Assembly: GCA_038244585.1 (NCBI GenBank)
Contig: JBBRTI010000002.1
Coordinates: 258-64,257 of the forward strand
Length of the DNA stretch: 64,000 bases
Reading direction: 5' to 3'
From: Candidatus Saccharimonadia bacterium
GTDB lineage: Bacteria; Patescibacteriota; Saccharimonadia; UBA4664
The position numbers and the translations under genes were made by a program. Numbering within the stretch: the stretch's first letter is position 1; the number at the start of each line of letters is the position of its first letter. This document shows positions 2,570 to 31,638 of the stretch, piece after piece. The notes below the pieces were generated by a model. That model was not told the DNA's origin. It did no database searches and saw only the letters and a program-made list of their open reading frames with translations.

Positions 2570-2668
2570 GTGGACGACAACGATAGCCTAGTCATTGGTG
2601 AGGGCAATCTCGCGCTCGATTTCAAGCGAGACTGCAGTTGCTCAGGCAGCGACGACAACCCACACTAA
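2570..2668 (+). CDS. candidate RiPP precursor peptide, 32 aa (MDDNDSLVIGEGNLALDFKRDCSCSGSDDNPH)
   Basis: GTG at 2570 lies 5 nt after GAGGAGGTGA and 15 nt after the rSAM stop. It has an acidic leader-like N-terminus and a Cys-containing C-terminus. The stop at 2668 is followed 18 nt later by a strong intrinsic terminator. Confidence 0.4.
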   Translation: MDDNDSLVIGEGNLALDFKRDCSCSGSDDNPH

Positions 2669-2714: not shown

Positions 2715-2730
2715 CGTTATAATAAATATT

Positions 2731-3579
2731 ATGACAAACGCAAAACTTCTTCAGAAGCTCATCACTACTCCTTACGTGCCGTTACTCGGTCCGGTACACC
2801 CAGATCTCATCGATGAGCAGCTGCTGGCCAATGTATTTCTTGCTGGAGATGCCGACGAGCTCCTGCCCTTCGACAAGGATCGACGCTGGTATATAAGCAA
2901 GCCGGCAATCATTCTATCAGACCACATTTACCGAAGCGTCACAGGCATGATTGTCCCGGTACTATCAAAGGGTTTGGAGCGCGTTAAGCTGTTGTGTTAC
3001 GGAGAAGCGGATCAGGACGATTTTAACAGCTGCGTTGAAGGAGTCAGGAGCTTGCATCCAATGTGCCAGATAACTATCGTCAGCTTTGCTCCCGTTGCAA
3101 CCCCCGTAGACAACGCTTCAATACTATTTCTCAAGCGTTTTTCAGAAATCGATAGTCGATCTGGCAATGCGACCGTTGAGCAAATAAGCGTAACAGAGGC
3201 CGGCAGTCTTGCAAGTTTGGCCGACGACGCCGAAAACTCTGGCTTCGGTTTTCTGGCGCGACAGTATGGCGAGAGGGAGCTCGGACCAACCTTTGTTATC
3301 CGTGACAACGGATTAGTTGTTGCTGCTGTCGGGCCAATAGATACGATGCCGGACTCAGCAGGACAATTATTATGTCTCCCACCATACGTCGGTGTAGCAA
3401 GTAATTATCGTGGCAGGGGACTCGGTAGCCTTGTTTGGCGAGCTGCCATGTCTTACGCTTCCGTCAAGGGGGCAACCTATCTATTACTTCAATCGGAGGC
3501 CGGCCAGGCTTCAGAGTATTTCTATGAGTCTCAAGGTTTAGTAGGGCTCGGAGCAGTAATTTCTAGACCAATAATATGA
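2731..3579 (+). CDS. GNAT-family N-acetyltransferase-like protein (C-terminal GNAT fold)
   Basis: ATG at 2731 lies after the terminator and an AT-rich stretch. RGRGLG matches the acetyl-CoA-binding motif A (R/Q-x-x-G-x-G/A). The ...YLLLQSEAG...YFYESQGL region is GNAT-like. The N-terminal half is unassigned. Confidence 0.55.
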   Translation: MTNAKLLQKLITTPYVPLLGPVHPDLIDEQLLANVFLAGDADELLPFDKDRRWYISKPAIILSDHIYRSVTGMIVPVLSKGLERVKLLCYGEADQDDFNSCVEGVRSLHPMCQITIVSFAPVATPVDNASILFLKRFSEIDSRSGNATVEQISVTEAGSLASLADDAENSGFGFLARQYGERELGPTFVIRDNGLVVAAVGPIDTMPDSAGQLLCLPPYVGVASNYRGRGLGSLVWRAAMSYASVKGATYLLLQSEAGQASEYFYESQGLVGLGAVISRPII

Positions 3580-4439: not shown

Positions 4440-5141
4440 ATGAAGAAAACTGGCACAACCCTGTACTGTTTCTCTCCCCCGGTGATGATAGCCACTTTTA
4501 TCATTGAGCTAGCGACGCTGCTCTATACGGTGATTAGATATCGCTTTACACCCCTGACTCGCGTGATTGCTGTGATTCTACTCCTGTTGGCAGTGTTTCA
4601 GCTCGCTGAATATAATGTCTGCGGCAACCTTGGGCTTTCGGCTGACGCTTGGTCAAGAATCGGCTATGTTGCCATCACTTTGCTGCCCGCCCTGTCGATT
4701 CATTTGATAATGATTGTGTCACGGCGGCATTGGCAGTGGCTCGTTTGGTTAAGCTACCTAACCGCCGCCGGCTTCGCCTTACTTTTCGGATTGAGCCAGT
4801 CGGCCTTTGCCAACCACGTCTGCTCAGGCAATTACGTCATCTTTCATTTAGTAGGCTCGGTTGGGAGAATCTACTTTGTTTATTATTATGCCTGGTTGAT
4901 TATCGGCATCTTTCTCGGCCTCTACCTCAGCGTGAATGCATCGAAAAAGATCCGTACGGCCCTGATACTGCAGGTCGTTGGCTACTTAAGCTTTCTACTA
5001 CCGACGGCGGTCGTAAATACGGTGAACCCGCGAACTATCTCCGGAATTCCGAGCATTATGTGTGGATTCGCCATAATCTATGCCCTAATCCTGGTCTTTG
5101 GCGTGGCGCCGCTAATGCTGCCGAAGCGAGCCAGACGCTAA
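4440..5141 (+). CDS. polytopic integral membrane protein (about 6-7 TM helices), function unknown
   Basis: Hydrophobic helices run throughout and the protein ends in a basic tail (PKRARR). No catalytic motifs. Confidence 0.55.
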   Translation: MKKTGTTLYCFSPPVMIATFIIELATLLYTVIRYRFTPLTRVIAVILLLLAVFQLAEYNVCGNLGLSADAWSRIGYVAITLLPALSIHLIMIVSRRHWQWLVWLSYLTAAGFALLFGLSQSAFANHVCSGNYVIFHLVGSVGRIYFVYYYAWLIIGIFLGLYLSVNASKKIRTALILQVVGYLSFLLPTAVVNTVNPRTISGIPSIMCGFAIIYALILVFGVAPLMLPKRARR

Positions 5142-5219
5142 CGTACCGATTCTTTACATCCCCAGCGCGCAGGCAGACACTAAAGCCATAGTTATATCAA
5201 ATTGAATAAGGATCATCCT

Positions 5220-6011
5220 ATGGAACCGAATCCGCCCTCAGTAAGCTCAGCCGGCAAATCCAAATTGACTCTTAGTCTAGACCTGCGCTGGGTAGCTCTG
5301 GCGCTCGTGGCGGTTATCGTCGCCATGCTGCTGGTGTGGCAGCCGTGGAGCCAGGTCGACAGTGTAAATGCACGGACCGTTACCGTCACGGGTGACACCA
5401 CTGTCAAAGCTGTGCCCGACGAATACGTCTTTAGTCTGTCATATCAGAACACGAACGCCGACAAAGCAGTGGCTATTCAGAAGGCTGGTGCTACGAGCGC
5501 GGAGATCATAGCCAAGCTCAAAGCTCTCGGGGTCACCGATAAGCAGATCAAGACTAGAGTAGACGGCTACGGCAACGCCCAACCAGATTATATGGGCATC
5601 GGCCGTCCCGTGCCTGTGCCTTCAGACGGCGGGTATGTCTATACCCTGCAGCTCACCGTGACCTTGACCGATCGGGCGAAGACCCAGCAAGTCCAGGATT
5701 ACCTGGTTACAACCAACCCGACCGGAACGGTCACCCCGATGCCGACCTTTAGCGACGGACTCCGCAAACAGCTTGAATCCAAAGCCCGTGACGCGGCCAC
5801 CCGCGAAGCCCGTACTAAGGCCGACCAATCCGCCCGCAATCTCGGCTTCAAAGTCGGCAGCGTCAAAAGTGTCGATGACGGCGGCGGAATCCGGCCGATG
5901 ATGGGTGGTGTCAGCAGTTCCGAGGCGAAAGACAGCGCCCCCAGCTTCAGCGTCCAGCCCGGTGAGAACGATCTCAATTACTCCGTAACCGTCACTTACT
6001 ACATAAAGTAG
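5220..6011 (+). CDS. SIMPL-domain (DUF541 / BP26-like) protein with an N-terminal signal anchor
   Basis: ATG at 5220 follows AAGGA. A TM anchor is followed by TVTVTGDTTVKAVPDEYVFSLSY... and a C-terminal ...QPGENDLNYSVTVTYYIK, a pattern typical of SIMPL proteins. Confidence 0.55.
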   Translation: MEPNPPSVSSAGKSKLTLSLDLRWVALALVAVIVAMLLVWQPWSQVDSVNARTVTVTGDTTVKAVPDEYVFSLSYQNTNADKAVAIQKAGATSAEIIAKLKALGVTDKQIKTRVDGYGNAQPDYMGIGRPVPVPSDGGYVYTLQLTVTLTDRAKTQQVQDYLVTTNPTGTVTPMPTFSDGLRKQLESKARDAATREARTKADQSARNLGFKVGSVKSVDDGGGIRPMMGGVSSSEAKDSAPSFSVQPGENDLNYSVTVTYYIK

Positions 6012-6339: not shown

Positions 6340-8235
6340 CTACAATTTGCTATAGCGAAGCATCAGCGAACTCGTCACCACCGAGACTGAGCTAAACGCC
6401 ATGGCTAGACCGGCAATGGCTGGGTTGAGAGTGAGGCCGAGCGGTACGAGCATGCCGGCTGCCACCGGTATGCCGGCCAGGTTGTAGACGAAGGCCCAAA
6501 ATAGGTTGAGGCGGATCCGGCCGAACGTCTTGTGGCTGAGCGTTAGGGCCCGGGAGACGTCGCGCAGGTCGTTTTTAACGAGGACGATGCCGCCCGCTTC
6601 CATGGCGATGTCCGTACCGGATCCCATGGCGATGCCCAGATCGGCTTGGGCCAGGGCCGGCGCATCGTTGATGCCGTCGCCGACGAAGGCGACCTTGCCG
6701 CGCTGCTGCAGCGTTTTAACGTGGTCGGCCTTGTCGCCGGGCAGCACTTCGGCAATGACGTTGGTGATACCTACCGCGCGAGCGATTGCCGCCGCTGTGG
6801 CTTTGTTGTCACCGGTGAGCATCACCGGTTCAAAGCCGCGCGCAGTCAGGTCTGCGACCGCTTCCGCCGCCATGGGCTTGGGTTCGTCCTGGACGGCAAT
6901 TAGCCCGATGAGCGAGCCGGCTTCTACTATCATCATGACGGTCTTACCTTGGCTTTCCAGTCTGGCCATCTCTTCGCCGAAAGCCGTAGCCGATAGCTGG
7001 AGGCCTTCCATCAAGGCGCGATTACCGACGGCCACGGGCTTTCCGGCCAGCTTGCCGGTTACGCCTTTGCCCTCGACAGCCTGGAAGTCTGAGGTTTTAG
7101 CGACCTCGATGCCTTCGGCTTTGGCTCGGTCAAGAATAGCCGACGCCAACGGATGTTCCGAGACGGCTTCGAGGGCAGCGGCCGTGCGTAATACCTCGGC
7201 TTCGTCGCCGACTATATCCGTCACCACCGGCCGTCCGACCGTCAGCGTTCCCGTCTTGTCGAAGACGATGTATTTGATATTATTAGCCGCTTCCAAGACT
7301 TCGCCGCTCTTGATGAGGATACCCAGACTGGCTCCTCGGCCGGTCCCGACCATCAGCGCCGTAGGCGTTGCCAGCCCCAAGGCGCACGGGCAGGCAATTA
7401 CTACCACTGCCACCGCGAACAACATCGACGCTACGAAACTGGATCCCAGCAGCACGAACCAGACGTTGAATACCAAAATCGCGAGTATTAGCACCACGGG
7501 CACGAACACGCCCGAGACCTTATCGGCTAGCTTTTGGATTGGTGCGCGGCTGTTTTGGGCCCGCCTTACCAGTTCCACGATTTGAGCGAGCAACGTTTCG
7601 GAGCCCACCTTGGTGGCCTCGAACGTAAACGATCCGGTTTTGTTAATTGTCGAGCCGATGACGATATCGCCGACGCCCTTAACCACCGGTAAACTTTCGC
7701 CCGTCACCATAGCTTCGTCGATGGTTGAACTGCCTTGCGTTATCTTGCCGTCGACAGCAATCTTCTCTCCTGGCCTTACTAGGACCAGGTCACCGACACG
7801 CACCTCGTCAAGCGGGACCGAGACTTCTTTGCCGTCGCGCAAGATCGTCGCTTGCTTGGCCTGCAGCCCTACCAGTTTCTCAATGGCGTTGGACGCCCGG
7901 TTGCGAGTGAGATCCTCGAATAGCTTGCCGAGCAGGATGAAGGTAATCAGCAGCGCAGCGATCTCAAAATAGACCTCCGTGCCCGCGCTCAAAGCGTACA
8001 GACTGTAGAAGTACGCCACACCGGTACCCAGGGCAACCAGCGTATCCATGCTAGCCTGACGGTGCTTGAAGGCCGACCACGCGCCTACGAAAAACGGGTA
8101 GCCGCCGAATACCATCACCGGCGTCGCCAAAGCCCACATGGTGAGCTTGTCACCGGGCAGCATCAGCCCCACCATAGTGAGGGCCAGTGGCAGAGAGAAA
8201 ACCAAGCTGATTATAAAACGAGTTTTCGTACTCAT
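6340..8235 (-). CDS. copA: copper-translocating P1B-type ATPase (CPC motif) that lacks an N-terminal metal-binding domain
   Basis: Motifs [15 protein letters not shown] (CPC), DKTGTLT, SEHPLA (HP) and [10 protein letters not shown] are all present. The protein starts directly with TM helices. Confidence 0.9.
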
Positions 8236-8603
8236 TTTACGACCACCTGGCCACTGAACATCTGCATTCCGCAGGTGTATTTATACTCGCCGGCCGTTTG
8301 CGGCCCGATCTCAATCATGGTTTTTTCGCCCAGCGGTAACGCCCTGGACACGCCGAAATCCGGGAGGAGGACTTCTTCGAGGCAGCCCGACGGGTCCTTT
8401 CGGTTAAAGATAAGCCTGGCCGGCACGCCGGCCGCCAGTTGGACGACCCTAGGCTGGTACCCGCCGTCAACCAATATCTCAACGGTTTGTACGCCCTCGG
8501 CCATTTCGGCCACCTGGGCCTCATCCTGGTGCTTACCGAAAAACCACCACACTATAAACCCGATAGCTAACGCTGATGTGACTAGCGAAACAATTTTGTC
8601 CAT
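8232..8603 (-). CDS. membrane-anchored cupredoxin-like domain protein
   Basis: An N-terminal TM helix is followed by a beta-rich domain ending in ...[18 protein letters not shown], which resembles the Cupredoxin_1 family that often neighbours Cu-ATPases. AAGGAG RBS is present. It overlaps the copA start and the HMA gene end. Confidence 0.45.
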
Positions 8604-8848
8604 TTGGAGTGCTCCTTTTTATTATTATCCGCGCTTGCGACAGGTATGGCTACATACCCCATAGCGGCAACGGCTGCCACTATACCGTCAGGGGATTGGT
8701 CGGTTTCCTCATATTCAACCCGCATCGTGTGCCGCTTATAGTCGGCCTCCACCTTTTTGACGCCGGCAAGATCATCTTCCATGGCTTCGAGGTGCATGAT
8801 GCACGACGGGCAGCTGAGGTTTTCCAGTCTAAACGATTGGCTTGTCAT
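8582..8848 (-). CDS. copZ: CopZ-like heavy-metal-associated (HMA) domain protein with a CxxC motif
   Basis: LSCPSCIMHLEA...GVKKVEADY...GYVA follows the HMA ferredoxin-like fold pattern. CPSC is the metal-binding pair. Confidence 0.6.
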   Translation of the reverse strand: MTSQSFRLENLSCPSCIMHLEAMEDDLAGVKKVEADYKRHTMRVEYEETDQSPDGIVAAVAAMGYVAIPVASADNNKKEHSKWTKLFR

Positions 8849-8859
8849 CTTAGAACTCC

Positions 8860-9882
8860 TTATTTTACGACGATTAGCGCTGAATACATGCCCATGACAC
8901 AGGTCAGGCGGATAGTGCCCGCAACCTGAGGTGGCAGCAGAATGATTTGCGAGTCAGTCTCGCCCAGCAGTTTTTGAATATTTAGCGACGGAATGACAAG
9001 TGACCGGCCGCACCCTTGGGTATTATTGGTTGTCACTGTGAGCTTAATCGGGACGCCCGCCTTGGCTTCCATGACGGCCGGAGCGTAGGCTTGGTCGGTA
9101 ATCGTCATACTCAGTGCATTGTCGGTCGTTGCTACGACCGCAGGAACATCCGGTTGGATTTGCTTTAATGACTGGGTCACAGCGGCGTAGGATATTGGTG
9201 AACCGGCTAGCGTCAGCCCGCTGTCAACCGCTATCACTCCCAGGACTAAGACTGCCACCCCGGCCGTCTTCCAGAACCGTGACTGCCAGCGATTACCCAG
9301 TTTGGTTGTTAGGTAGGCTAGCGAAAAGAACAGAGGCGTAGTTCCCAGAACAAAGGCAAACAAAATTGCAGCACCCGTTACCGGGCTGCCACTGCCTACT
9401 GCCAGTGCCATCATGGCCTGGGTCACGCCGCACGGTATGAGCACGGTTAACGCGCCCAGGAAGGTGGGTGCTAGCCAATTGGCGTCGGCTTGTTTTGATT
9501 TACGCCGGATGTAACGCGTCGCAAACTTGGGCGGCGTTATGGCAAAGTGACGGAATATGGGATGGACGTTTAACAGACGGAATGCCGTGCCCACCATGAA
9601 CAGCCCGATTGCAATCTGGAGAATCGCCCGCATCAGTGGGGTCAGCTGTAGAAGCTGACCAAGCCATCCTAGAGCGGCCCCCAGTAAGGTATAGGACACC
9701 AGTTTGGCGCCCAAAAACAGTAGTATCGGCTGCGCGGACTGCCGGCGGGAGCGGACCGCTGCACCAGCGTCAGTTTCGGCAGGATCAGCCAATGCACTGG
9801 CCAGCATGCCGCCCTGAACCGCTAAACAGCTGAGACCGCCTGCCGTCAGCCCGGTCACGAATACGATTAATAAATTCGACAC
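8860..9882 (-). CDS. polytopic membrane protein (CcdA/DsbD-like TM domain with conserved Cys) fused to a C-terminal cupredoxin-like domain
   Basis: TM1 carries GLTAGGLSCLAVQGG and a later helix carries IPCGVTQ. The C-terminus ...GCGRSLVIPSLNIQ...AGTIRLTCVMGMYSALIVVK looks like Cupredoxin_1. Confidence 0.5.
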   Translation of the reverse strand: MSNLLIVFVTGLTAGGLSCLAVQGGMLASALADPAETDAGAAVRSRRQSAQPILLFLGAKLVSYTLLGAALGWLGQLLQLTPLMRAILQIAIGLFMVGTAFRLLNVHPIFRHFAITPPKFATRYIRRKSKQADANWLAPTFLGALTVLIPCGVTQAMMALAVGSGSPVTGAAILFAFVLGTTPLFFSLAYLTTKLGNRWQSRFWKTAGVAVLVLGVIAVDSGLTLAGSPISYAAVTQSLKQIQPDVPAVVATTDNALSMTITDQAYAPAVMEAKAGVPIKLTVTTNNTQGCGRSLVIPSLNIQKLLGETDSQIILLPPQVAGTIRLTCVMGMYSALIVVK

Positions 9883-9924
9883 GTAAATCTCCTCGTTATA
9901 GTACGTTTAGGTACGAACGAGTGG

Positions 9925-10263
9925 TCAATCGAGACGGTGAGAGTACAAGTCGATATAATTTGGCGACGGCCTGGCGTGGGCCGGTAAATAAAGTAGCAAA
10001 AATTGCCCACGCATCGGCAGGGCAATGGCGACAACGGCCATCACTCCCAATAACAAAGATAAGGCAGTAGTCGGCGTAAACGGTGCCGAATAGGGCAAAC
10101 GGCTGGCACCCAAACATAGGGTCAGACAGCTGGCACCGCCTTGATCCATCGTCACGGCGTGGTCTTGGTGTGCGGCCGACATGAGGGGTGCCGCACCAAA
10201 ACCGACGATACTCAACGCAACTGCCATGATTGCCGCTAGAATATATCTCGCTCGGGTATTCAT
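9925..10263 (-). CDS. small membrane protein, first gene of the copper operon
   Basis: Hydrophobic helices plus a His/Met-containing segment (SAAHQDHAVTMDQ). It is the first ORF downstream of the divergent promoter region. Confidence 0.35.
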   Translation of the reverse strand: MNTRARYILAAIMAVALSIVGFGAAPLMSAAHQDHAVTMDQGGASCLTLCLGASRLPYSAPFTPTTALSLLLGVMAVVAIALPMRGQFLLLYLPAHARPSPNYIDLYSHRLD

Positions 10264-23586: not shown

Positions 23587-24024
23587 ATGGCGCAAAACGG
23601 TGCCGGCAGTGAGACGGAGATAAATCCGCACACCGATGGCTACGTCTTTACTGATCACAGCTTTAAGGAGCCGCGTGATCTCGTATTTTGGGGCGGCGGC
23701 TTTACGAAGCTTCAACAGGCCGTCTTCGGCGGCACGGTGTTTTTCAGCGTCTTCGTGCCCTGTCTGCTTGGATTCCTAGTATGGAACTATTTCTATCTGG
23801 GGGTCGCGCTCACGATGCCATTGGGCATCTTCTTCGGGTACCAAGCACTAAAGGCCGTTGATCCGCCACTCCGGTTCATGAACACGCAATGGCAGCATCT
23901 TGTTGCCACCCTGCGCTACCGGCGTCAACCAGAAGCCATCGTTGATGGTCGCGCCTATACCCCTGGAGCAACTATCCGCACGGCCATCCTGTTCGTCCAA
24001 TCGAGTAAAGGAGTGAGGCAATAA
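23587..24024 (+). CDS. VirB3/PrgI-like small membrane protein (TM hairpin) immediately upstream of the VirB4-like ATPase
   Basis: ATG at 23587 follows GAGGTG. A hydrophobic hairpin (FFSVFVPCLLGFLVWNYFYLGVALTMPLGIFFGY) is present. Its stop overlaps the ATPase start. Confidence 0.4.
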   Translation: MAQNGAGSETEINPHTDGYVFTDHSFKEPRDLVFWGGGFTKLQQAVFGGTVFFSVFVPCLLGFLVWNYFYLGVALTMPLGIFFGYQALKAVDPPLRFMNTQWQHLVATLRYRRQPEAIVDGRAYTPGATIRTAILFVQSSKGVRQ

Positions 24025-26609
24025 TGTCTCTGTTCACACTGCGGCAACAGCCGCACACCTTCACGGATCAGTTTACCAAGCCGACACGGCGAATGCGTGC
24101 GCAGGCGAAGTACGCAGATCTGAACGCCGTATCTCCCGCCTCTGACATCGACGGCAGTTTTGTAAAATCGACTGAGGACAAGGTATGGGAGGTCTGGGTT
24201 CGTGTGAATCTCGTCCATGCCATTGACAACCTCAGCGACTCAGACCTCGACGACGTCTACGCCAACCATATCCGCATCCTTGATCCGCTTCGGGGCTGTG
24301 ACATCCACTTGGAAGTCCTGCCGGTTCCGGTTGGATTCGACGAACGCTACGCGCGTTTTCGCCGTTTTGAGCTGGATCCGACAAACCCGGTACGTGATGA
24401 CCCAGCATGGCAGTCCATGCGGCATGATCGCGTGGCGGACATGGCTGCCTGGCTTCAGGACGCCAACGGCGACTATGAATCCCGGGCTTATCTGGGCATC
24501 CGGCTTTACGGGGCAAAACCCGACCCGAGCCTGAGCGTTGATTCGTTCTGGCAGATGTCGCTGGAAAAGCGGTTCTATCTTGAGGATCCCGACAACCGTT
24601 GGCTCATCAAGCCGGCGGCCGAGGTTCTCAACCGCCTAGCGCCCGCTTGGGGCGAAGGAGTACAGCCCGTCTCTAGGGACGAGTTGGACCTGATCCTGTC
24701 ACTCACCAACTGGCCTGGCCAGGTTGACGTCCAGCGGCCAAAGCGGCTCGCCGGCATCCACGAAGGCGAGCGCAAAGAACTGGCGTTCTATGGGCGTAGC
24801 GTCTACACGGACGTAGCCCCCGGCACCCTACGGTTCGACCGGTACGGCCAGAAGTCGTACGCGTCATTCCTGCCGATTGCCCGTATCCCTCACATCGCTC
24901 GATTTGTTGCCAAGCAAAGCAAGGATTACTCCTTTCTCACGACAAGTTCCGGCCGCCGGATCAGAATCAGCTGGCGCTTTACCTACACCTCGAACAAGGC
25001 CCTCATCGAGAGGGCCCGGCTCAGCATGGTAAAGGCTCAGCATGACGCCGAGTACCTGGATACGCATGAGGGCCAGGCCAGCGACAGGAAGAACAATATC
25101 GAAATCGCATCGACCTTTTACGAGTATTTGCGTGACGGAGGCTACGTCCTCGTCGGCATACCGCTGGTAGTAATTACCGGCGACACGTTAGAGGAGGTTG
25201 AGATTGAGCGCAACAGCCAAATGGCCATGTTGGGCAGGGACGCTGAGCTTTTCATCGACCCTCGGTATCAGATGATCTTCTACGAGCTTAGCAGGCCCGG
25301 CGCGCGTTTAAACTGTGCGGCGTACGTTCAGTACGTCTCGCCTCAGACGTTTGCTCGCGGCATGCCGTTCGTGACGTCGGCGCTCAGCATCCAAGGTCCG
25401 GATCTGTTGGGCTGGGTCAAAGGCCGGGAGCTCGTGCCCTATACGGGCGCTCTCGACCTATCGACTCTGCTCCCCGGACTTAACACTGCACCGGTCGCAA
25501 TTTATAGCGGCAACTCGGGCGGTGGCAAAACCACCACTATCATCAACGATTTGGTGGCTGCCATCGAACGAGGCGGGTACGTCGGGTTCCTCTACGAGTT
25601 GCTCAAGCAGGACTCACGCAACCTCCTGGGCCCCGATTTCAACGGCATCAAAGTGAGATACTGGGAGCTGGACAGCCAGCCCGGTTTGCTCAACCCGGCG
25701 GGACTAGCCCCGACACCAGCACAACGCGTAGACCTTGTATCAAGGTTCCTGCGTAACTGCTGCGGTAACCAGTGGAACGCAGAATGGCTGCCCGACCTTC
25801 GGGACGCCGTTAAAGACGCCCTGGTCGAAGCTGACAAGAGTGGAAAGCCGAAGCCCGATCTGTTCCGGGTGTTGGATTTCCTGATTGATCCCGAGAAGAA
25901 ATACAGCAACGGCAGGGCCATCGAATCCATTCTGGCGGAGCTGCGCGGAGATACCGTCGTCGCCCCGATCTTCTTCTCGGACCATCATGATTCGGATCTG
26001 ATTGCGTCAATGAGCCAACCTGGCTTGAACGTGATCATGCAGAAGAACTTTGATATCCCGAAGAACATGACCGAAGATAAGTACACCGTCGACAATTGGC
26101 TGGCGCTGGCCGGTTTGGACCTCTCGACAATGCTCGCTCACAAGGTGGCATTCGACAAGAACGTTCGCACCATAATCGGCACCGTGGAATTCCACCAGTC
26201 GTCCAGCCTACCGACCACCCAGTCGATGGTCGATGGCCTCGCCCGCACCGGGCGAAGCGAGAAGACGGTCACGGCTTACGACAGCCAACTCTGGGGCGAT
26301 ATGCCTGACTCGTTGAGGGAACAGGCAACGACGAAACTCGGCTTCCAGCCGGAAGGCGAGGGAGAAGCCAAGCTACTGCTCAAAGAGATGGGCCTGGATG
26401 CTGATGACCTACGAAACCTTCGTGACGTCATGAACATGGCAAACGCCAAGAACGCTCAGAGCGATGAACTCAAGGGCACCGCCATGGTACGACTGCCCAA
26501 CCGGGAAGTCGCCAGGGTACAGGGCCTTCGCTGGTACGTCGGAACCACTCGGACCACCGACGGCCCAGTTCCAAACAACCCGCAGCACGTCTCGGAAGGA
26601 GACAGATAA
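24024..26609 (+). CDS. VirB4/TrbE-family type IV secretion ATPase (861 aa)
   Basis: Walker A is GNSGGGKTT. Size and position are typical of VirB4/TcpF-like ATPases. It sits in an operon with VirB3-, VirB6- and VirB8-like genes. Walker B was not confidently located. Confidence 0.65.
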   Translation: MSLFTLRQQPHTFTDQFTKPTRRMRAQAKYADLNAVSPASDIDGSFVKSTEDKVWEVWVRVNLVHAIDNLSDSDLDDVYANHIRILDPLRGCDIHLEVLPVPVGFDERYARFRRFELDPTNPVRDDPAWQSMRHDRVADMAAWLQDANGDYESRAYLGIRLYGAKPDPSLSVDSFWQMSLEKRFYLEDPDNRWLIKPAAEVLNRLAPAWGEGVQPVSRDELDLILSLTNWPGQVDVQRPKRLAGIHEGERKELAFYGRSVYTDVAPGTLRFDRYGQKSYASFLPIARIPHIARFVAKQSKDYSFLTTSSGRRIRISWRFTYTSNKALIERARLSMVKAQHDAEYLDTHEGQASDRKNNIEIASTFYEYLRDGGYVLVGIPLVVITGDTLEEVEIERNSQMAMLGRDAELFIDPRYQMIFYELSRPGARLNCAAYVQYVSPQTFARGMPFVTSALSIQGPDLLGWVKGRELVPYTGALDLSTLLPGLNTAPVAIYSGNSGGGKTTTIINDLVAAIERGGYVGFLYELLKQDSRNLLGPDFNGIKVRYWELDSQPGLLNPAGLAPTPAQRVDLVSRFLRNCCGNQWNAEWLPDLRDAVKDALVEADKSGKPKPDLFRVLDFLIDPEKKYSNGRAIESILAELRGDTVVAPIFFSDHHDSDLIASMSQPGLNVIMQKNFDIPKNMTEDKYTVDNWLALAGLDLSTMLAHKVAFDKNVRTIIGTVEFHQSSSLPTTQSMVDGLARTGRSEKTVTAYDSQLWGDMPDSLREQATTKLGFQPEGEGEAKLLLKEMGLDADDLRNLRDVMNMANAKNAQSDELKGTAMVRLPNREVARVQGLRWYVGTTRTTDGPVPNNPQHVSEGDR

Positions 26610-29230: not shown

Positions 29231-29854
29231 ATGGCCCGTAAGATAAGGCGCATAGTTTTTGTGCTGTTTATCTTTGTGGGCCTGTTCATCGCGGCTCACA
29301 AAGGTTCTGAATATGGAACTAGCAAGGCGAAGTCACTGATACTGCCGCAGTCCGCCCCCAGCGGCATAGATCAGCTCCCCCCCGGAGTTGAGCCGCCTCT
29401 GCCGCTACCCACCCAGCTCTATCAGAGTGAGGGAAAGCCGTCCTGCGACAAGGTTATTGCCTCGGGACCGCTTTCAGTTATCGGGCATGTCCTTTCGGTC
29501 TATGCCGGGTTCCCGAATGCGTCGTCTAATCGCGACAATGTGGCAATTCTGGCGCAACTCCGCCGCGACGATAGTATCTCGGAAGGCTTGTTTAATCGTA
29601 CCAGCCAATCTTGGCTGAATACGACGTACAAAGCGACGTTGGCAGTGTCGGCGACAGTCAGCAGCTGCGAAGTCGGGGAGCGCTCCACGCTAGCCCAGCA
29701 GCTTCTCATCAACGTGAAGCTGAAGACGACGGACGGTAATCGGCCGGACCAACTGCTTCCGTACTCTGTTGATGTTGTCCGTTTACACGATTCCTACATG
29801 GTCACGAATATCGGTCCGCAGCAAATAAGTGTGAGCGGCGGTGGCTCGTCATGA
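29231..29854 (+). CDS. bitopic membrane protein, possible VirB8/TcpC-like component
   Basis: A single N-terminal TM precedes an approximately 170-aa extracytoplasmic domain. Assignment rests on size, topology and position only. Confidence 0.35.
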   Translation: MARKIRRIVFVLFIFVGLFIAAHKGSEYGTSKAKSLILPQSAPSGIDQLPPGVEPPLPLPTQLYQSEGKPSCDKVIASGPLSVIGHVLSVYAGFPNASSNRDNVAILAQLRRDDSISEGLFNRTSQSWLNTTYKATLAVSATVSSCEVGERSTLAQQLLINVKLKTTDGNRPDQLLPYSVDVVRLHDSYMVTNIGPQQISVSGGGSS

Positions 29855-31638
29855 AGCGCCAGCTAGTAATCGCAGTCGTTAAGGCGGCGAATGGCAATGC
29901 TAAGCCGCTTCTGAACCTGGCACTGCCGACCATAGTAAAAACAATTGGCGTAACGGCCTCCGTCGGCATGCTGTTTAGCGGCACTGCGCTCGGTGCGGCC
30001 GTTGTGGCCGGCGGGTTGTTCGGTCAGCAGGCCGTTAAGATCAACGGCACTCAGAGCTGCACGACCCAAACCGTAGTCACGGGAGTCATAACTCAAGACG
30101 TCCCCGCCCTATATCGTCCGATTTTTACTCAAGCTGCCGCAGCCCGCGGCACCGACGTGAATTTGCTGGCGGCGATATTCTACGTTGAACATGGACGTAG
30201 CTATCCTGAGCCGCCGCCGCCCTACGGGAAAGGCAAGGCTTGGGCCGTATCTTCGGCCGCCGCTATGGGACCATTCCAGTTCATACCTTCGACGTGGCAA
30301 AGTTTCGGCGTCGACGGGAATAATGATGGTCAAATTGACCCCAACGACCTAACCGATGCAGCCTATTCGGCCGCAGGCTTTCTGACATCGCTCGGCGGAA
30401 AAGCCGGCGTCCCGCCAGGGGATCCTGCTAAACCGTACGACAAGCCGAGCATTGTCAACGTTATGGCCTCGTATAATGCTGGGCCGTCAGGCAACTTTGG
30501 CAACGGCGAAACGCAAGCCTACATCAAAAACGGGTTTGCGTACTACACCAAGCTTACTAACGGACCCTTGGCCAATCCACTGGCTGACACGACGATATCG
30601 GAATGCACGACGACATTTGAAGCGTCAGACACTACGCAATCGCCGAAAGTCTTTGCCTACGGCAGTACGATGCTCGCTGGCATATCCGCCGGCGGGCTCG
30701 GCACAAATCTGTCGGCTCAATCAGTTCAATTGAACGTGTCGGCTTCACCTGGTATGACGCTTGATGAGGCGGCCTTAGGTTTGTCGAATCTTGCGCCTAA
30801 GCTAGTTGAGGCTAAAGCGATCATACTGTCCTTTGGGGACGCGGCGATAGACGGGACCGGAGCTGCCTACGTGGCGAAGGTGAAGTCAATTGTCGCTAAG
30901 GTGCGGGTTATAAATCCAACTGCCAATATTTGGTGGGTCGATGCCAACACGCGGACGCCCGATTCCATACTTGACCCGCTACTGACGACAGCGGCCGAGG
31001 CCGGCGGTTTCAAATTGGTGTATTGGAAACGCCTAGCCAGACTAAGTGCCACTTCCGGTGGACCCAGCTGGACTGCAGAGGGTAGTAGCACGCAGCTGTC
31101 CGGCACAGGAGACCTAAAGGTCGCGGCATTAGTTGGTCAGTCCGTAATGGAAGACCTGACGCTAGCCGATAAGGTCTACGTCTTGCGCGGCAACGCCAAG
31201 TATTTGGCCATGCAGGTATTGGTGACTACGAATATCAGACTTAGCGGCCGCTTGGTACGCCAAGACTTAACTCTTGCCAGTCAAGGAAAGCCAGGATCAT
31301 CAGGCGTTCCGTTGTCGGCTAATATGTTGGCAATCTTATTGGAGCTTGCCAAGACGCGTCAAGTAACAGTTACGGCCATCGAGAGTGGTGGAACTGGTCA
31401 TGCTGGCGGCAGTAATCACTATGATGGAACGGCCTTGGATATTGATATCGGGCCGGCCGGAAATGCGGCGATAGTCACGCAGCTTTACAATCATCGCGCT
31501 GATTTAGGCATCGGCGACCTGATCTACAGCCCGATGCCGGCCGGTACCACAACTCTCAAGCACGGCATCGCGCTTACTTACAATTCTGCGACAATGAGCG
31601 AACACACGAACCACGTGCATTTCAGCTCGAACAAATAG
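29851..31638 (+). CDS. bifunctional cell-wall hydrolase: MltB-like lytic transglycosylase (SLT_2) plus C-terminal M15-like peptidase motif
   Basis: FYVEHG carries the catalytic Glu. GPFQFIPSTW...DGNNDGQIDPNDLTDAAYSAAGFL is family-3 LT-like. The C-terminal SNHYDGTALDIDIG (SxHxxGxAxD) and HTNHVHF complete the M15-like signature. Confidence 0.65.
   Translation: MKRQLVIAVVKAANGNAKPLLNLALPTIVKTIGVTASVGMLFSGTALGAAVVAGGLFGQQAVKINGTQSCTTQTVVTGVITQDVPALYRPIFTQAAAARGTDVNLLAAIFYVEHGRSYPEPPPPYGKGKAWAVSSAAAMGPFQFIPSTWQSFGVDGNNDGQIDPNDLTDAAYSAAGFLTSLGGKAGVPPGDPAKPYDKPSIVNVMASYNAGPSGNFGNGETQAYIKNGFAYYTKLTNGPLANPLADTTISECTTTFEASDTTQSPKVFAYGSTMLAGISAGGLGTNLSAQSVQLNVSASPGMTLDEAALGLSNLAPKLVEAKAIILSFGDAAIDGTGAAYVAKVKSIVAKVRVINPTANIWWVDANTRTPDSILDPLLTTAAEAGGFKLVYWKRLARLSATSGGPSWTAEGSSTQLSGTGDLKVAALVGQSVMEDLTLADKVYVLRGNAKYLAMQVLVTTNIRLSGRLVRQDLTLASQGKPGSSGVPLSANMLAILLELAKTRQVTVTAIESGGTGHAGGSNHYDGTALDIDIGPAGNAAIVTQLYNHRADLGIGDLIYSPMPAGTTTLKHGIALTYNSATMSEHTNHVHFSSNK

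Follow-up and report, generated by a model that had tools for sequence, protein, structure and literature searches.

Radical-SAM-modified peptides have repeatedly been a source of new enzyme chemistry and of useful molecules, including darobactin, mycofactocin and PQQ. Among their maturases, SkfB forms a Cys-Met thioether, SuiB a Lys-Trp carbon-carbon bond and CteB a Cys-Thr thioether, and as substrates and reactions vary among the three, the chemistry cannot be read from the fold. Accessory functions are encoded in several systems: mycofactocin clusters also carry MftB, MftD, MftE and MftF, GNAT-type N-acetylation occurs in microviridin and goadsporin, lysine acetylation in the lasso peptide albusnodin and phosphorylation of the C-terminal Ser in paeninodin, and the acetyltransferase MccE serves self-immunity.

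The rSAM/SPASM enzyme PapB connects the Cys sulfur to the carbon beside an Asp side-chain carboxylate, which yields Cys-x3-Asp thioethers (PMC10739248, PMC12373016). It tolerates many changes between the Cys and the Asp (PMC10739248) and can use even a C-terminal carboxylate, and PapA contains six CX3D repeats (PMC12373016). The mycofactocin peptide MftA needs its C-terminal Val-Tyr, and StsB of Streptomyces sparsogenes is more similar to MftC than to thioether synthases, yet makes Cys thioethers (PMC10288494). MftC-type similarity therefore does not predict the reaction (PMC10288494), and a thioether reading is compatible with it.

Here we describe a locus in the genome of a Candidatus Saccharimonadia bacterium. 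The window, by which we mean the whole stretch of 64,000 nucleotides that was analysed, contains at 2570-2668 a short ORF which we regard, with a probability of roughly 0.8, as a genuine translated gene for the precursor of an rSAM-modified RiPP, the chemical steps discussed below being inferred throughout. The family is real, of RiPP type and apparently undescribed. The features of the locus are as follows.

1440-2554, + strand: radical-SAM/SPASM maturase gene, split in the window into ORFs 1440-1901 and 1895-2554
1440-1679, + strand: N-terminal domain of the maturase, about 80 aa, predicted as three strands followed by three helices (RRE-type fold)
1892-1893, + strand: frameshift site at codon 152, GG in the window against GGG in a 98%-identical relative
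2555-2561, + strand: GAGGAGG, the Shine-Dalgarno sequence for the peptide gene, 8 nt ahead of its GTG start
2570-2668, + strand: predicted precursor peptide gene, 32 aa, translation MDDNDSLVIGEGNLALDFKRDCSCSGSDDNPH, absent from predicted-protein collections
2570-2632, + strand: presumed acidic leader, residues 1-21, up to a putative leader/core boundary
2633-2665, + strand: presumed core CSCSGSDDNPH, with Cys22, Cys24, Asp28, Asp29, Asn30, Pro31 and His32
2685-2714, + strand: GC-rich hairpin (2685-2710) with a T-run (TTTT, 2710-2713), after the peptide gene
2718-2723, + strand: TATAAT, 6-7 nt ahead of the start codon of GNAT, the interval lacking a Shine-Dalgarno sequence
2731-3579, + strand: GNAT partner gene, 282 aa, with a C-terminal GNAT domain and a family-specific N-terminal half (PYVPxLGPVHPD...DKDRRW)

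Comparison with described systems

The locus resembles PapB and PapA (freyrasin) in that an rSAM/SPASM enzyme accompanies a leader-bearing peptide in which a Cys stands three residues before an Asp; in the window peptide this pair, Cys24-x3-Asp28, lies near the free C-terminus. Unlike PapA, members of the window family have one such motif at most, and 19 of 84 variants are without the Cys-x3-Asp spacing. The maturase shows no detected relationship to PapB beyond the shared superfamily, nor is it close to CteB or to any other characterised enzyme. To our knowledge, PapA/PapB lack any counterpart of the GNAT and kinase-like partners, and of the invariant Pro-aromatic end, that characterize the present family.

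Mycofactocin (MftC/MftA) provides the best curated score and a comparable organization, i.e. a short peptide with a conserved extreme C-terminus ending in Tyr and a compact, Actinomycetota-rich cassette with no dedicated exporter. However, an NCBIfam scan of the maturase gave no model at its cut-off, and the top curated match, MftC, reached 77.9 bits against a cut-off of 265; no ranthipeptide maturase was present among the best 25 of 43 matching NCBIfam families. In contrast to MftA, the peptides end in Pro-Tyr, Pro-His or Pro-Phe, at times with extra residues, and the window peptide in Pro-His. Genes resembling MftB, MftD, MftE or MftF were not apparent on reading through the neighbouring genes of the window and its relatives.

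The StsB/StsA sactipeptide system likewise has an actinomycete rSAM/SPASM maturase, but the StsA core CxCxCx4GxGxG differs from the CxCxxxDDNP-aromatic core of the window family, and the StsB model scores 60 bits against 625. The model of the enzyme aligns with SkfB, SuiB and CteB over the whole length, N-terminal domain included, and its predicted order of domains agrees with theirs, a presumed peptide-binding domain being followed by the rSAM barrel and the auxiliary-cluster domain; sequence identity is 14-18%. Encoding a GNAT and/or a kinase beside the precursor is reminiscent of the RiPP tailoring and immunity enzymes mentioned above, as an analogy only. Attenuator peptides, mycofactocin, StsB-type sactipeptides, PQQ-type peptides and viperin/defence systems were each rejected as class assignments, falling below the curated cut-off or lacking the defining motif.

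A conserved peptide gene behind the maturase gene

The short ORF had been proposed in a sequence-only reading as an unannotated precursor, composed of an acidic leader and a C-terminal core with Cys, for the rSAM/SPASM enzyme next to it, and the conservation of the ORF and of the motif strongly supports this, as does the third-position pattern. As described there, the GTG at 2570 lies 15 nt past the upstream stop and 5 nt past a purine block, and opens a 32-aa frame. The purine block (GAGGAGGTGA, 2555-2564) directly follows the TGA of the upstream ORF (2552-2554) and has a GGAGG counterpart 5' of the peptide ORF in the related loci L087, L081, L088, L091, L085 and L001. GTG 2570 is the likely start codon, because the other in-frame GTG, at 2561, falls within the Shine-Dalgarno sequence; at the position of GTG 2570, L091 has ATG, and L081 and L088 have TTG. 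The Cys-x3-Asp motif pointed out earlier is present, but its residues, then numbered Cys23 and Asp27, are Cys24 and Asp28 when counted from this start. Similarly, the statement that the alternative frames are closed holds for the beginning of the ORF, where each other forward frame has two early stops, but not for the remainder, since the two are open from 2595 and from 2638, respectively; an antisense ORF (2506-2658) also spans the stretch. Rfam and tRNA scans of the window gave no matches.

Related loci place the ORF in a family. In 89 of 92 of them, a short ORF ending in C-x-C-x-A-[G/S]-D-D-[N/Q]-P-[Y/H/F] lies 3' of the homologous radical-SAM gene, in the same place and frame, which is the conservation the earlier proposal had called for. 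Most of these loci belong to Actinomycetota, whereas Saccharimonadia, the class of the window, are found in a deep sister clade. Among 84 distinct peptides, each of the two core Cys positions is occupied by Cys in 77 and at least one Cys is present in all; Asp(-4) is found in 70, Asp(-3) and Pro(-1) in 81 each (Val at -1 in two), and an aromatic residue in all 84 (Tyr 74, His 6, Phe 4). This aromatic residue is the exact C-terminus in 72 and is followed by one or two extra residues in the other 12. Cys-x3-Asp is carried by 65 of the 84, the window peptide among them; of the 19 without it, 12 have Cys-x4-Asp only and seven a single Cys with the Asp one or two residues away. The leaders are more group-specific: (D/N)LVIGEGNLAxDF is kept in the window's clade (alignment of eight relatives), and actinomycete leaders have E-[IV]-E-F-V-x-D-L-D-x-L-x-E in its place.

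Between close relatives, substitutions fall mainly on third codon positions and the core motif is kept, so that no codon-level conservation speaks against the peptide frame, which the sequence-only reading had named as a possible objection. The peptide genes of L081 and L088 differ by nine synonymous and two non-synonymous codon changes (1/1/10 by codon position), and the window peptide differs from that of L087 in one residue. Six-frame translation of the window gives 1848 stop-to-stop segments that are 20 aa or longer; when all were scored with an HMM built from 74 actinomycete peptides only, ORF 2570-2668 was the sole significant match (E 3.3e-4; runner-up 0.63). Conservation, codon pattern and this independent-profile test rule out a chance ORF. 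In 26 of 76 loci the first codon of the peptide gene shares bases with the rSAM stop codon, and in 37 more the two are at most 25 nt apart, which points to translational coupling of the two genes. The peptide gene is real and conserved, evolves under purifying selection and stays linked to the genes for the enzyme and for its partners.

The exact window peptide, with either start, was not found in a collection of 15 billion proteins, consistent with its earlier description as unannotated. In several assemblies, including those of the closest relatives of the window, the gene falls under the size threshold of gene callers, and the family is therefore under-annotated. Public data contain 1183 called peptides of the family, of which every named one is a 'hypothetical protein', and neither Pfam nor NCBIfam has a model for the peptide.

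The maturase and the frameshift in the window

The search for maturase relatives returned 807 sequences. The CxxxCxxC motif (C91/C95/C98, nt 1710-1733) is invariant in 22 homologs, as are seven C-terminal Cys (C285, C303, C338, C341, C347, C350 and C368, nt 2291-2542) in the pattern Cx17C...Cx2Cx5Cx2C...C; the SPASM-type assignment rests on this motif pattern, without a Pfam SPASM match. Pfam Radical_SAM matches the intact homolog P0001 (371 aa) with 61.5 bits. In the AlphaFold2 model of P0001, the N-terminal domain comprises strands 5-9, 14-18 and 24-27 and helices 31-40, 47-57 and 66-69 (pLDDT 93-97), and among the structures that align with the model over its whole length (388-414 columns) the nearest are SkfB, SuiB and CteB. 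PqqD/RRE profiles gave no match to residues 1-80; an RRE-like domain of the kind that binds peptide leaders is suggested by the predicted topology together with the structural neighbours. With this RRE-like domain, the CxxxCxxC motif and the seven C-terminal Cys, the architecture read from motifs and model is that of a peptide maturase.

The upstream gene had previously been named as that of the maturase. Its rSAM/SPASM identity stands, but a one-base frameshift, missed at the time, divides it into two ORFs. One G is missing from a GGG run (CGAATGGCATGC in the window, CGAATGGGCATGC in L087), and the homologs all continue as ...AAYRMGMLIR... across this point. Either the pathway was recently inactivated in this genome or the base is an assembly error. 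If the frameshift is real, which we consider possible but somewhat doubtful, the cassette is a decaying remnant from which no maturase is made and whose peptide is intact only because the loss is recent. The missing G does split the gene at codon 152, and other overlapping ORF pairs examined in the window are separate genes, so that the assembly shows no sign of being generally error-ridden; on the other hand, the frame rejoined across the site is 98% identical to P0001 and free of further stops, the peptide gene (one residue off L087) and the GNAT gene are intact, and single-base homopolymer errors are a frequent assembly artefact.

Partner genes and transcription signals

Downstream of the peptide gene lies a gene for a protein with Pfam matches to PF13508 (27.5 bits) and PF00583 (25.0 bits) and weak matches in the PDB to Naa30, the tabtoxin-resistance protein and RimI. 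Relatives have a GNAT gene in the same position; this conserved partner had not been part of the sequence-only reading. The N-terminal half was considered as a second, degenerate GNAT domain and rejected, as hhalign of the two halves gave a probability of 0.2%.

Across 87 loci, GNAT is the partner in 26 and a kinase-like protein in 65, with both in 10 (loci of Amycolatopsis and other Pseudonocardiaceae among them), the kinase-like protein being the commoner partner in actinomycetes. Its Lys, Glu, HxD, Asn and Asp are invariant, and it resembles protein and aminoglycoside kinases, not nucleotide kinases. No curated model matches either partner, both of which are family-specific. All 63 distinct peptides from kinase loci have Tyr, whereas those from non-kinase loci have Tyr in seven cases and His or Phe in 10 (Fisher 1.2e-8, with kinship between loci ignored). 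In the neighbourhoods of the window and its relatives, the cassette shows no conserved gene for a protease or an exporter, which weakens the case for a secreted natural product.

The hairpin followed by TTTT, already noted in the earlier reading, begins 16 nt past the peptide stop and closes a 4-nt loop with 11 pairs, all but one of which are G-C. It is kept in eight diverged relatives, with two-sided changes in two of nine pairs, and represents either an intrinsic terminator/attenuator or a stabilising 3' stem-loop. The six columns of the TATAAT downstream of it are all identical in eight relatives, with variable flanks, and probably form the -10 box of a leaderless GNAT transcript. Hairpin and separate -10 box together suggest that GNAT is transcribed on its own and that the peptide message is terminated or stabilised at the hairpin.

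Proposed chemistry and alternatives

From the architecture of the enzyme and the co-occurrence of the genes, the following scheme may be drawn. The acidic leader of about 21 residues would dock on the RRE-like N-terminal domain of the enzyme encoded directly upstream. This enzyme, with a SAM-cleaving [4Fe-4S] cluster and two auxiliary clusters presumably held by the seven invariant Cys, would introduce one or two intramolecular cross-links into the 11-residue core C-S-C-x-x-x-D-D-N-P-(Y/H/F). By analogy, the likeliest link would be a thioether in which a Cys sulfur is joined to some carbon within the Asp-Asp-Asn-Pro-aromatic segment. The downstream GNAT acetyltransferase may then tailor or neutralise the product, and in most actinomycetes a kinase-like enzyme may act instead, probably on the terminal Tyr.

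A PapB-type Cys-X3-Asp ranthipeptide thioether is a plausible leading guess for the modification, and for Cys24-x3-Asp28 as the site of a PapB-like thioether the analogy gives roughly even odds. However, the spacing is missing in 19 of 84 peptides, and the enzyme is not close to any characterised thioether synthase.

The peptide may also be a genuine rSAM-modified precursor that receives a modification other than a Cys thioether, an alternative that we rate as tenable but tentative. Candidates are a carbon-carbon or carbon-heteroatom link between Asp(-4) or Asp(-3) and the C-terminal aromatic ring, following the logic of PqqE (Glu-x3-Tyr), SuiB (Lys-x3-Trp) and the cyclophane-forming enzymes, or chemistry at the C-terminal residue, with the Cys merely ligating an auxiliary cluster or a metal. 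Conservation of the Asp(-4)-x3-aromatic spacing and of the aromatic residue equals that of the Cys (84/84 for the aromatic residue, 81/84 for Asp(-3) and Pro(-1)), the Cys-to-Asp spacing varies, and 72 of 84 peptides stop exactly at the aromatic residue. The family accepts Tyr, His and Phe, all of which cyclophane-forming enzymes take alike, and MftC, the enzyme of the top curated match, works on a Tyr at the C-terminus. Against these points stand the presence of at least one Cys in all 84 variants and the fact that thioethers are the usual product when a SPASM enzyme has a core with Cys as its substrate. In addition, Pro precedes the aromatic residue here, and 12 of 84 peptides carry one or two extra residues, whereas MftC requires C-terminal Val-Tyr (PMC10288494).

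The remaining alternatives dispense with modification or with the peptide itself. An unmodified Cys-x-Cys peptide that binds copper and works with adjoining copper-homeostasis genes seems improbable to us. Genes for a P-type ATPase, a DsbD_2-cupredoxin protein and a 107-aa membrane protein do adjoin the cassette in the window, L081, L088 and L089, and CxC with acidic residues could bind Cu(I), but these genes are not beside the cassette in L091, L085, L001 or any actinomycete locus, while an rSAM gene adjoins the peptide gene throughout; only one Cys is present in seven variants, and the RRE-bearing rSAM enzyme would be left unexplained.

Still less credible is a role in transcription attenuation, with the ORF as a leader peptide that responds to the supply of Cys and regulates GNAT by way of the hairpin, even though the layout of a short ORF with two Cys codons, a terminator-like hairpin and then a gene fits this scheme. 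Its faint match to the Ms4527A Cys-rich leader peptide (12.8 bits, E 0.065) is eight residues long, compares with a cut-off of 45 bits and does not recur in five relatives. The entire DDNP-aromatic tail is conserved at the amino-acid level across phyla, the ORF is equally present in 55 loci without a GNAT gene, the GNAT gene has its own invariant TATAAT past the hairpin, and the consensus fold is the single hairpin only, with no alternative antiterminator pairing.

A viperin-like function of the rSAM enzyme in antiviral nucleotide modification, with the kinase as its partner in actinomycetes and the short ORF incidental, can practically be dismissed. The PADLOC pVip match (residues 84-242, 63.6 bits) covers the generic rSAM core only, and the curated prokaryotic viperin model NF038283 gives 55.5 bits where 180 are required. 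Viperins are not known to have either an RRE-like domain at the N-terminus or a SPASM-type tail with seven Cys, both of which mark this family. Moreover, the ORF is conserved and translationally coupled, and the partner kinase is unlike nucleotide kinases.

Distribution and significance

The peptides form a family whose 11-residue core is sharply conserved and which has its own maturase and, as alternatives, two tailoring enzymes; the link between Tyr and the kinase yields a concrete prediction. Neither any of the core motifs nor the gene combination turned up in the full-text literature that was searched; supplementary data sets may list the family. A bolder possibility, which we hold to be rather unlikely, is an undescribed cross-link, e.g. 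from the Cys sulfur or the Asp beta-carbon to the C-terminal Tyr, His or Phe, which would make this a new RiPP class, possibly with an intracellular product; if true, that class would extend over more than 450 sequenced species. Since an acetyltransferase or a Tyr-linked kinase is encoded in the cassette, whereas proteases and exporters are not, the product may be an intracellular cofactor or a switchable signal, not a secreted antibiotic.

Saccharibacteria are epibionts of actinomycetes, and the occurrence of the cassette in both could therefore reflect a chemical language between parasite and host. Their genomes are strongly reduced and contain little secondary metabolism, which makes the product a candidate factor in the dependence of Saccharibacteria on actinomycete hosts. 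Recent transfer from actinomycete hosts is disfavoured: in a neighbour-joining tree, the GNAT-only clade, which comprises the relatives of the window, the Saccharibacteria MAG L001 and other unassigned metagenome contigs, is the deep sister of all actinomycete sequences and is not nested within them, a placement that is weak evidence in a midpoint-rooted distance tree.

In a collection with one genome per species (185,579 species), the maturase occurs in 454 genome stretches, counted as stretches matching the search patterns. The cassette is thus present in the window's Saccharibacteria genome and in hundreds of actinomycete species, whose cultivable representatives include Streptomyces, Amycolatopsis, Saccharopolyspora, Carbonactinospora and Actinomadura.

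Conservation of the peptide gene

The elements proposed by the sequence-only reading, namely an upstream stop, GAGGAGGTGA, a GTG-initiated ORF and a hairpin followed by TTTT, were all found in the window sequence:

2552-2554, + strand: stop of the upstream ORF
2555-2564, + strand: GAGGAGGTGA, before the peptide ORF
2570-2668, + strand: peptide ORF of 32 codons with GTG start and TAA at 2666-2668; translation MDDNDSLVIGEGNLALDFKRDCSCSGSDDNPH
2685-2710: hairpin of 11 pairs (10 G-C), running into TTTT

The residue numbers Cys23 and Asp27 have to be corrected: counted from the GTG, the core carries Cys22, Cys24, Asp28 and Asp29, and the motif is Cys24-x3-Asp28. Closure of the alternative frames holds in part, as each other forward frame contains two stops early in the stretch but is open from 2595 and 2638, respectively, and an antisense ORF (2506-2658) spans the peptide stretch too. 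Position 2570 is supported as the start because ATG in L091 and TTG in L081 and L088, three loci carrying maturase relatives, align with the GTG. The exact window peptide is absent from a collection of 15 billion proteins, and gene callers left the peptide gene uncalled in L081, L087, L088, L089 and L091.

For comparison, 80 genome loci with relatives of the enzyme and 12 metagenome or genome loci around its closest relatives were sampled (92 in total); the source collection holds one genome per species for 185,579 species, and 454 of 469 candidate stretches were confirmed. A short same-strand ORF follows the radical-SAM (rSAM) gene in 89 of the 92 loci, the exceptions being one locus at a contig end, one with an interrupted gene and one whose rSAM gene continues past its usual end. 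In 26 of 76 loci the peptide start and the rSAM stop overlap, and in 37 more they are at most 25 nt apart. The 84 distinct peptides, aligned on their last aromatic residue, share the motif [M/K]-C-S-C-x-A-[G/S]-D-D-[N/Q]-P-[Y/H/F], in which each Cys position is Cys in 77, the Asp positions are occupied in 70 and 81, Pro in 81 and the aromatic residue in all 84, forming the exact C-terminus in 72. Most differences between the peptide genes of relatives fall on third codon positions; between L081 and L088, nine are synonymous and two non-synonymous (1/1/10 by codon position). Furthermore, a profile HMM built from 74 actinomycete peptides only, run against all 1848 open segments of the window, matched the peptide ORF alone (E 3.3e-4; next-best segment, E 0.63). 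The short ORF is thus a conserved, translated gene, and its recurrence, motif and third-position changes strongly support the proposed precursor peptide.

Peptides of the window's clade
Window and L087: ...LVIGEGNLALDFKRDCSCS[G/S]SDDNPH
L081 and L088: ...LVIGEGNLA[D/V]DF[S/R]RDCSCKSGDDNPY
L091: ...FVQGEGNLTEDFAAMCSCTGADDNPH
L085: ...DLNADFARDCACKAGDDNPY
L001: ...DLSEDFAQDCACAASDDNPY

Damaged cassettes were seen at L042 (~5000-5100), where the peptide gene breaks off after 17 codons, at L074 (5083-5121), in frame only for the last 12 codons, and at L009 (~5070-5335), where the rSAM reading frame extends beyond its usual end.

The maturase and its frameshift

In the window the upstream maturase gene is split into two ORFs, 1440-1901 and 1895-2554, a split passed over by the sequence-only reading. 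When these were rejoined across the frameshift and used as a query, 807 relatives of ~370 aa were recovered, the best of which, P0001, is intact and 98% identical. Comparison with its contig, L087, places the frameshift at 1892-1893, where the window has GG for GGG, one G being gone (window CGAATGGCATGC, L087 CGAATGGGCATGC). The other overlapping ORF pairs of the window that were checked proved to be distinct genes, so frameshifts are not a general feature of the assembly; the missing G may reflect either a true mutation or a homopolymer error. With the maturase gene frameshifted in this genome, local function is uncertain.

Across the family, the CxxxCxxC motif (C91/C95/C98) is kept, together with seven more invariant cysteines (Cx17C...Cx2Cx5Cx2C...C). 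An AlphaFold2 model (mean pLDDT 81) places the rSAM barrel after a confidently predicted N-terminal domain of three strands then three helices, whose modelled topology is that of RiPP leader-recognition elements. Over the whole length, the closest solved structures are the peptide maturases SkfB, SuiB and CteB, and sequence matches to solved proteins are confined to the rSAM core.

Partner proteins

Clustering of all ORFs revealed two partners, a GNAT-domain protein of 282 aa in 26 of 87 loci and a second protein of ~280 aa in 65, with both present in 10. Downstream of the peptide gene, the window and its relatives carry the hairpin, a TATAAT and the GNAT gene. The hairpin is kept in relatives, two of nine pairs being changed on both sides, and the TATAAT is invariant in the window (2718-2733 up to and including the GNAT start codon), L081, L087, L088, L089, L091, L085 and L001. 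Since it lies 6-7 nt 5' of the ATG without a Shine-Dalgarno sequence, the arrangement suggests a separately promoted, leaderless GNAT transcript. The GNAT domain forms the C-terminal part of the protein; residues 1-170 (window 2731-3240) carry the strongly conserved motif PYVPxLGPVHPD...LPxDKDRRW, have no Pfam match and show no resemblance to the GNAT half (hhalign probability 0.2%).

The ~280-aa partner resembles kinases, with weak Pfam APH and RIO matches, weak matches to protein-kinase catalytic loops and invariant Lys, Glu, HxD, Asn and Asp. In most actinomycete cassettes (L002-L080) its gene lies ~100-250 nt past the peptide gene, replacing the GNAT gene or beside it. All 63 distinct peptides from kinase loci end in Tyr, compared with Tyr in 7 and His or Phe in 10 at kinase-less loci, which are spread over several separate tree branches (Fisher 1.2e-8, without phylogenetic correction). 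The simplest reading of these sequences is that the kinase would require the Tyr hydroxyl, a testable prediction.

Proposed mechanism and cross-link chemistry

Beyond the peptide gene, its conservation, its linkage and the enzyme architecture, which are established, we propose that the leader would bind the N-terminal domain of the maturase, which would cross-link the core, and that the GNAT protein or the kinase would modify the product afterwards, as tailoring or for self-protection. Among candidate cross-links, a Cys thioether ranks first, because at least one Cys is present in every one of the 84 variants and because of the precedent of PapB, an rSAM/SPASM enzyme which joins Cys to the carbon beside the Asp carboxylate in CX3D motifs and tolerates much variation (PMC10739248, PMC12373016). 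Several findings speak against reading the family as a plain PapB analogue: the Cx3D spacing, on which the sequence-only reading had relied, is absent from 19 of the 84 variants; seven have a single, shifted Cys; the best curated match of the enzyme is MftC, which scores 78 bits where the cut-off is 265; and in the StsB study such similarity was no predictor of the reaction (PMC10288494). PapB-type chemistry of the cassette is plausible.

A serious rival is a cross-link involving the invariant aromatic residue. Its Asp-x3-aromatic spacing would parallel the Glu-x3-Tyr link of PQQ and the Lys-x3-Trp link of streptide.

Novelty

The peptide has no match among Pfam or NCBIfam models, the maturase and the kinase-like partner score below the cut-off of every curated model, and the GNAT partner has generic Pfam GNAT-domain matches only. 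The 1183 called peptides found by the family profile have no Pfam domain, and any name is 'hypothetical protein'. Full-text literature searching found no paper with the core motifs or the gene combination; large rSAM-RiPP atlases may list the family. As no model, named peptide or paper matched, the family is apparently undescribed; it falls within the rSAM-RiPP paradigm as already known. It is common and sharply delimited, lends itself to experiments and has apparently not been studied.

Lineage and genomic neighbourhood

The occurrence in Saccharibacteria is unexpected. The BipA encoded in the window shares 82-85% identity with proteins which NCBI assigns to Candidatus Saccharimonadia. In a distance tree of the enzyme, the relatives of the window, L001 (a Saccharibacteria MAG) and other metagenome sequences form one clade, which branches deeply as the sister group of the entire actinomycete clade and does not nest within it; every readable locus of this sister clade has GNAT as its only partner. 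In a MAG labelled Micavibrio sp. (L007 1632-1793), the cassette lies in AT-rich DNA and its peptide has a long leader rich in Lys (...MCACKASDDNPYQT). Attachment to other bacteria is a way of life that Micavibrio shares with Saccharibacteria.

Neither a protease nor a transporter is conserved around the cassette in the loci compared. In the lineage of the window only, copper-homeostasis genes adjoin it (P-type ATPase, DsbD_2-cupredoxin and a 107-aa membrane protein), with a CsoR-like repressor among them in L088; the window has this block in inverted orientation, ~2.8 kb from the cassette:

Window 6340-10221, - strand: copper-homeostasis block
L081 2974-6874; L088 6166-6993; L089 6902-7346: copper-homeostasis genes

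At the window edge (1-370), an ORF end at 47-367 has 66% G+C, whereas the window as a whole has 55% and the spacer that follows (430-1440) 44%, a composition which suggests foreign or mosaic DNA. Further along, 24024-26609 and 29851-31638 encode a VirB4-like AAA_10 ATPase and a protein with an SLT transglycosylase domain; the large ORFs among which they lie have no Pfam match, and this region looks like a type-IV-secretion-like gene block. In L091, a YcaO/nitroreductase-domain gene (9040-9107) begins ~4 kb 3' of the cassette and may represent a second peptide-modifying system.
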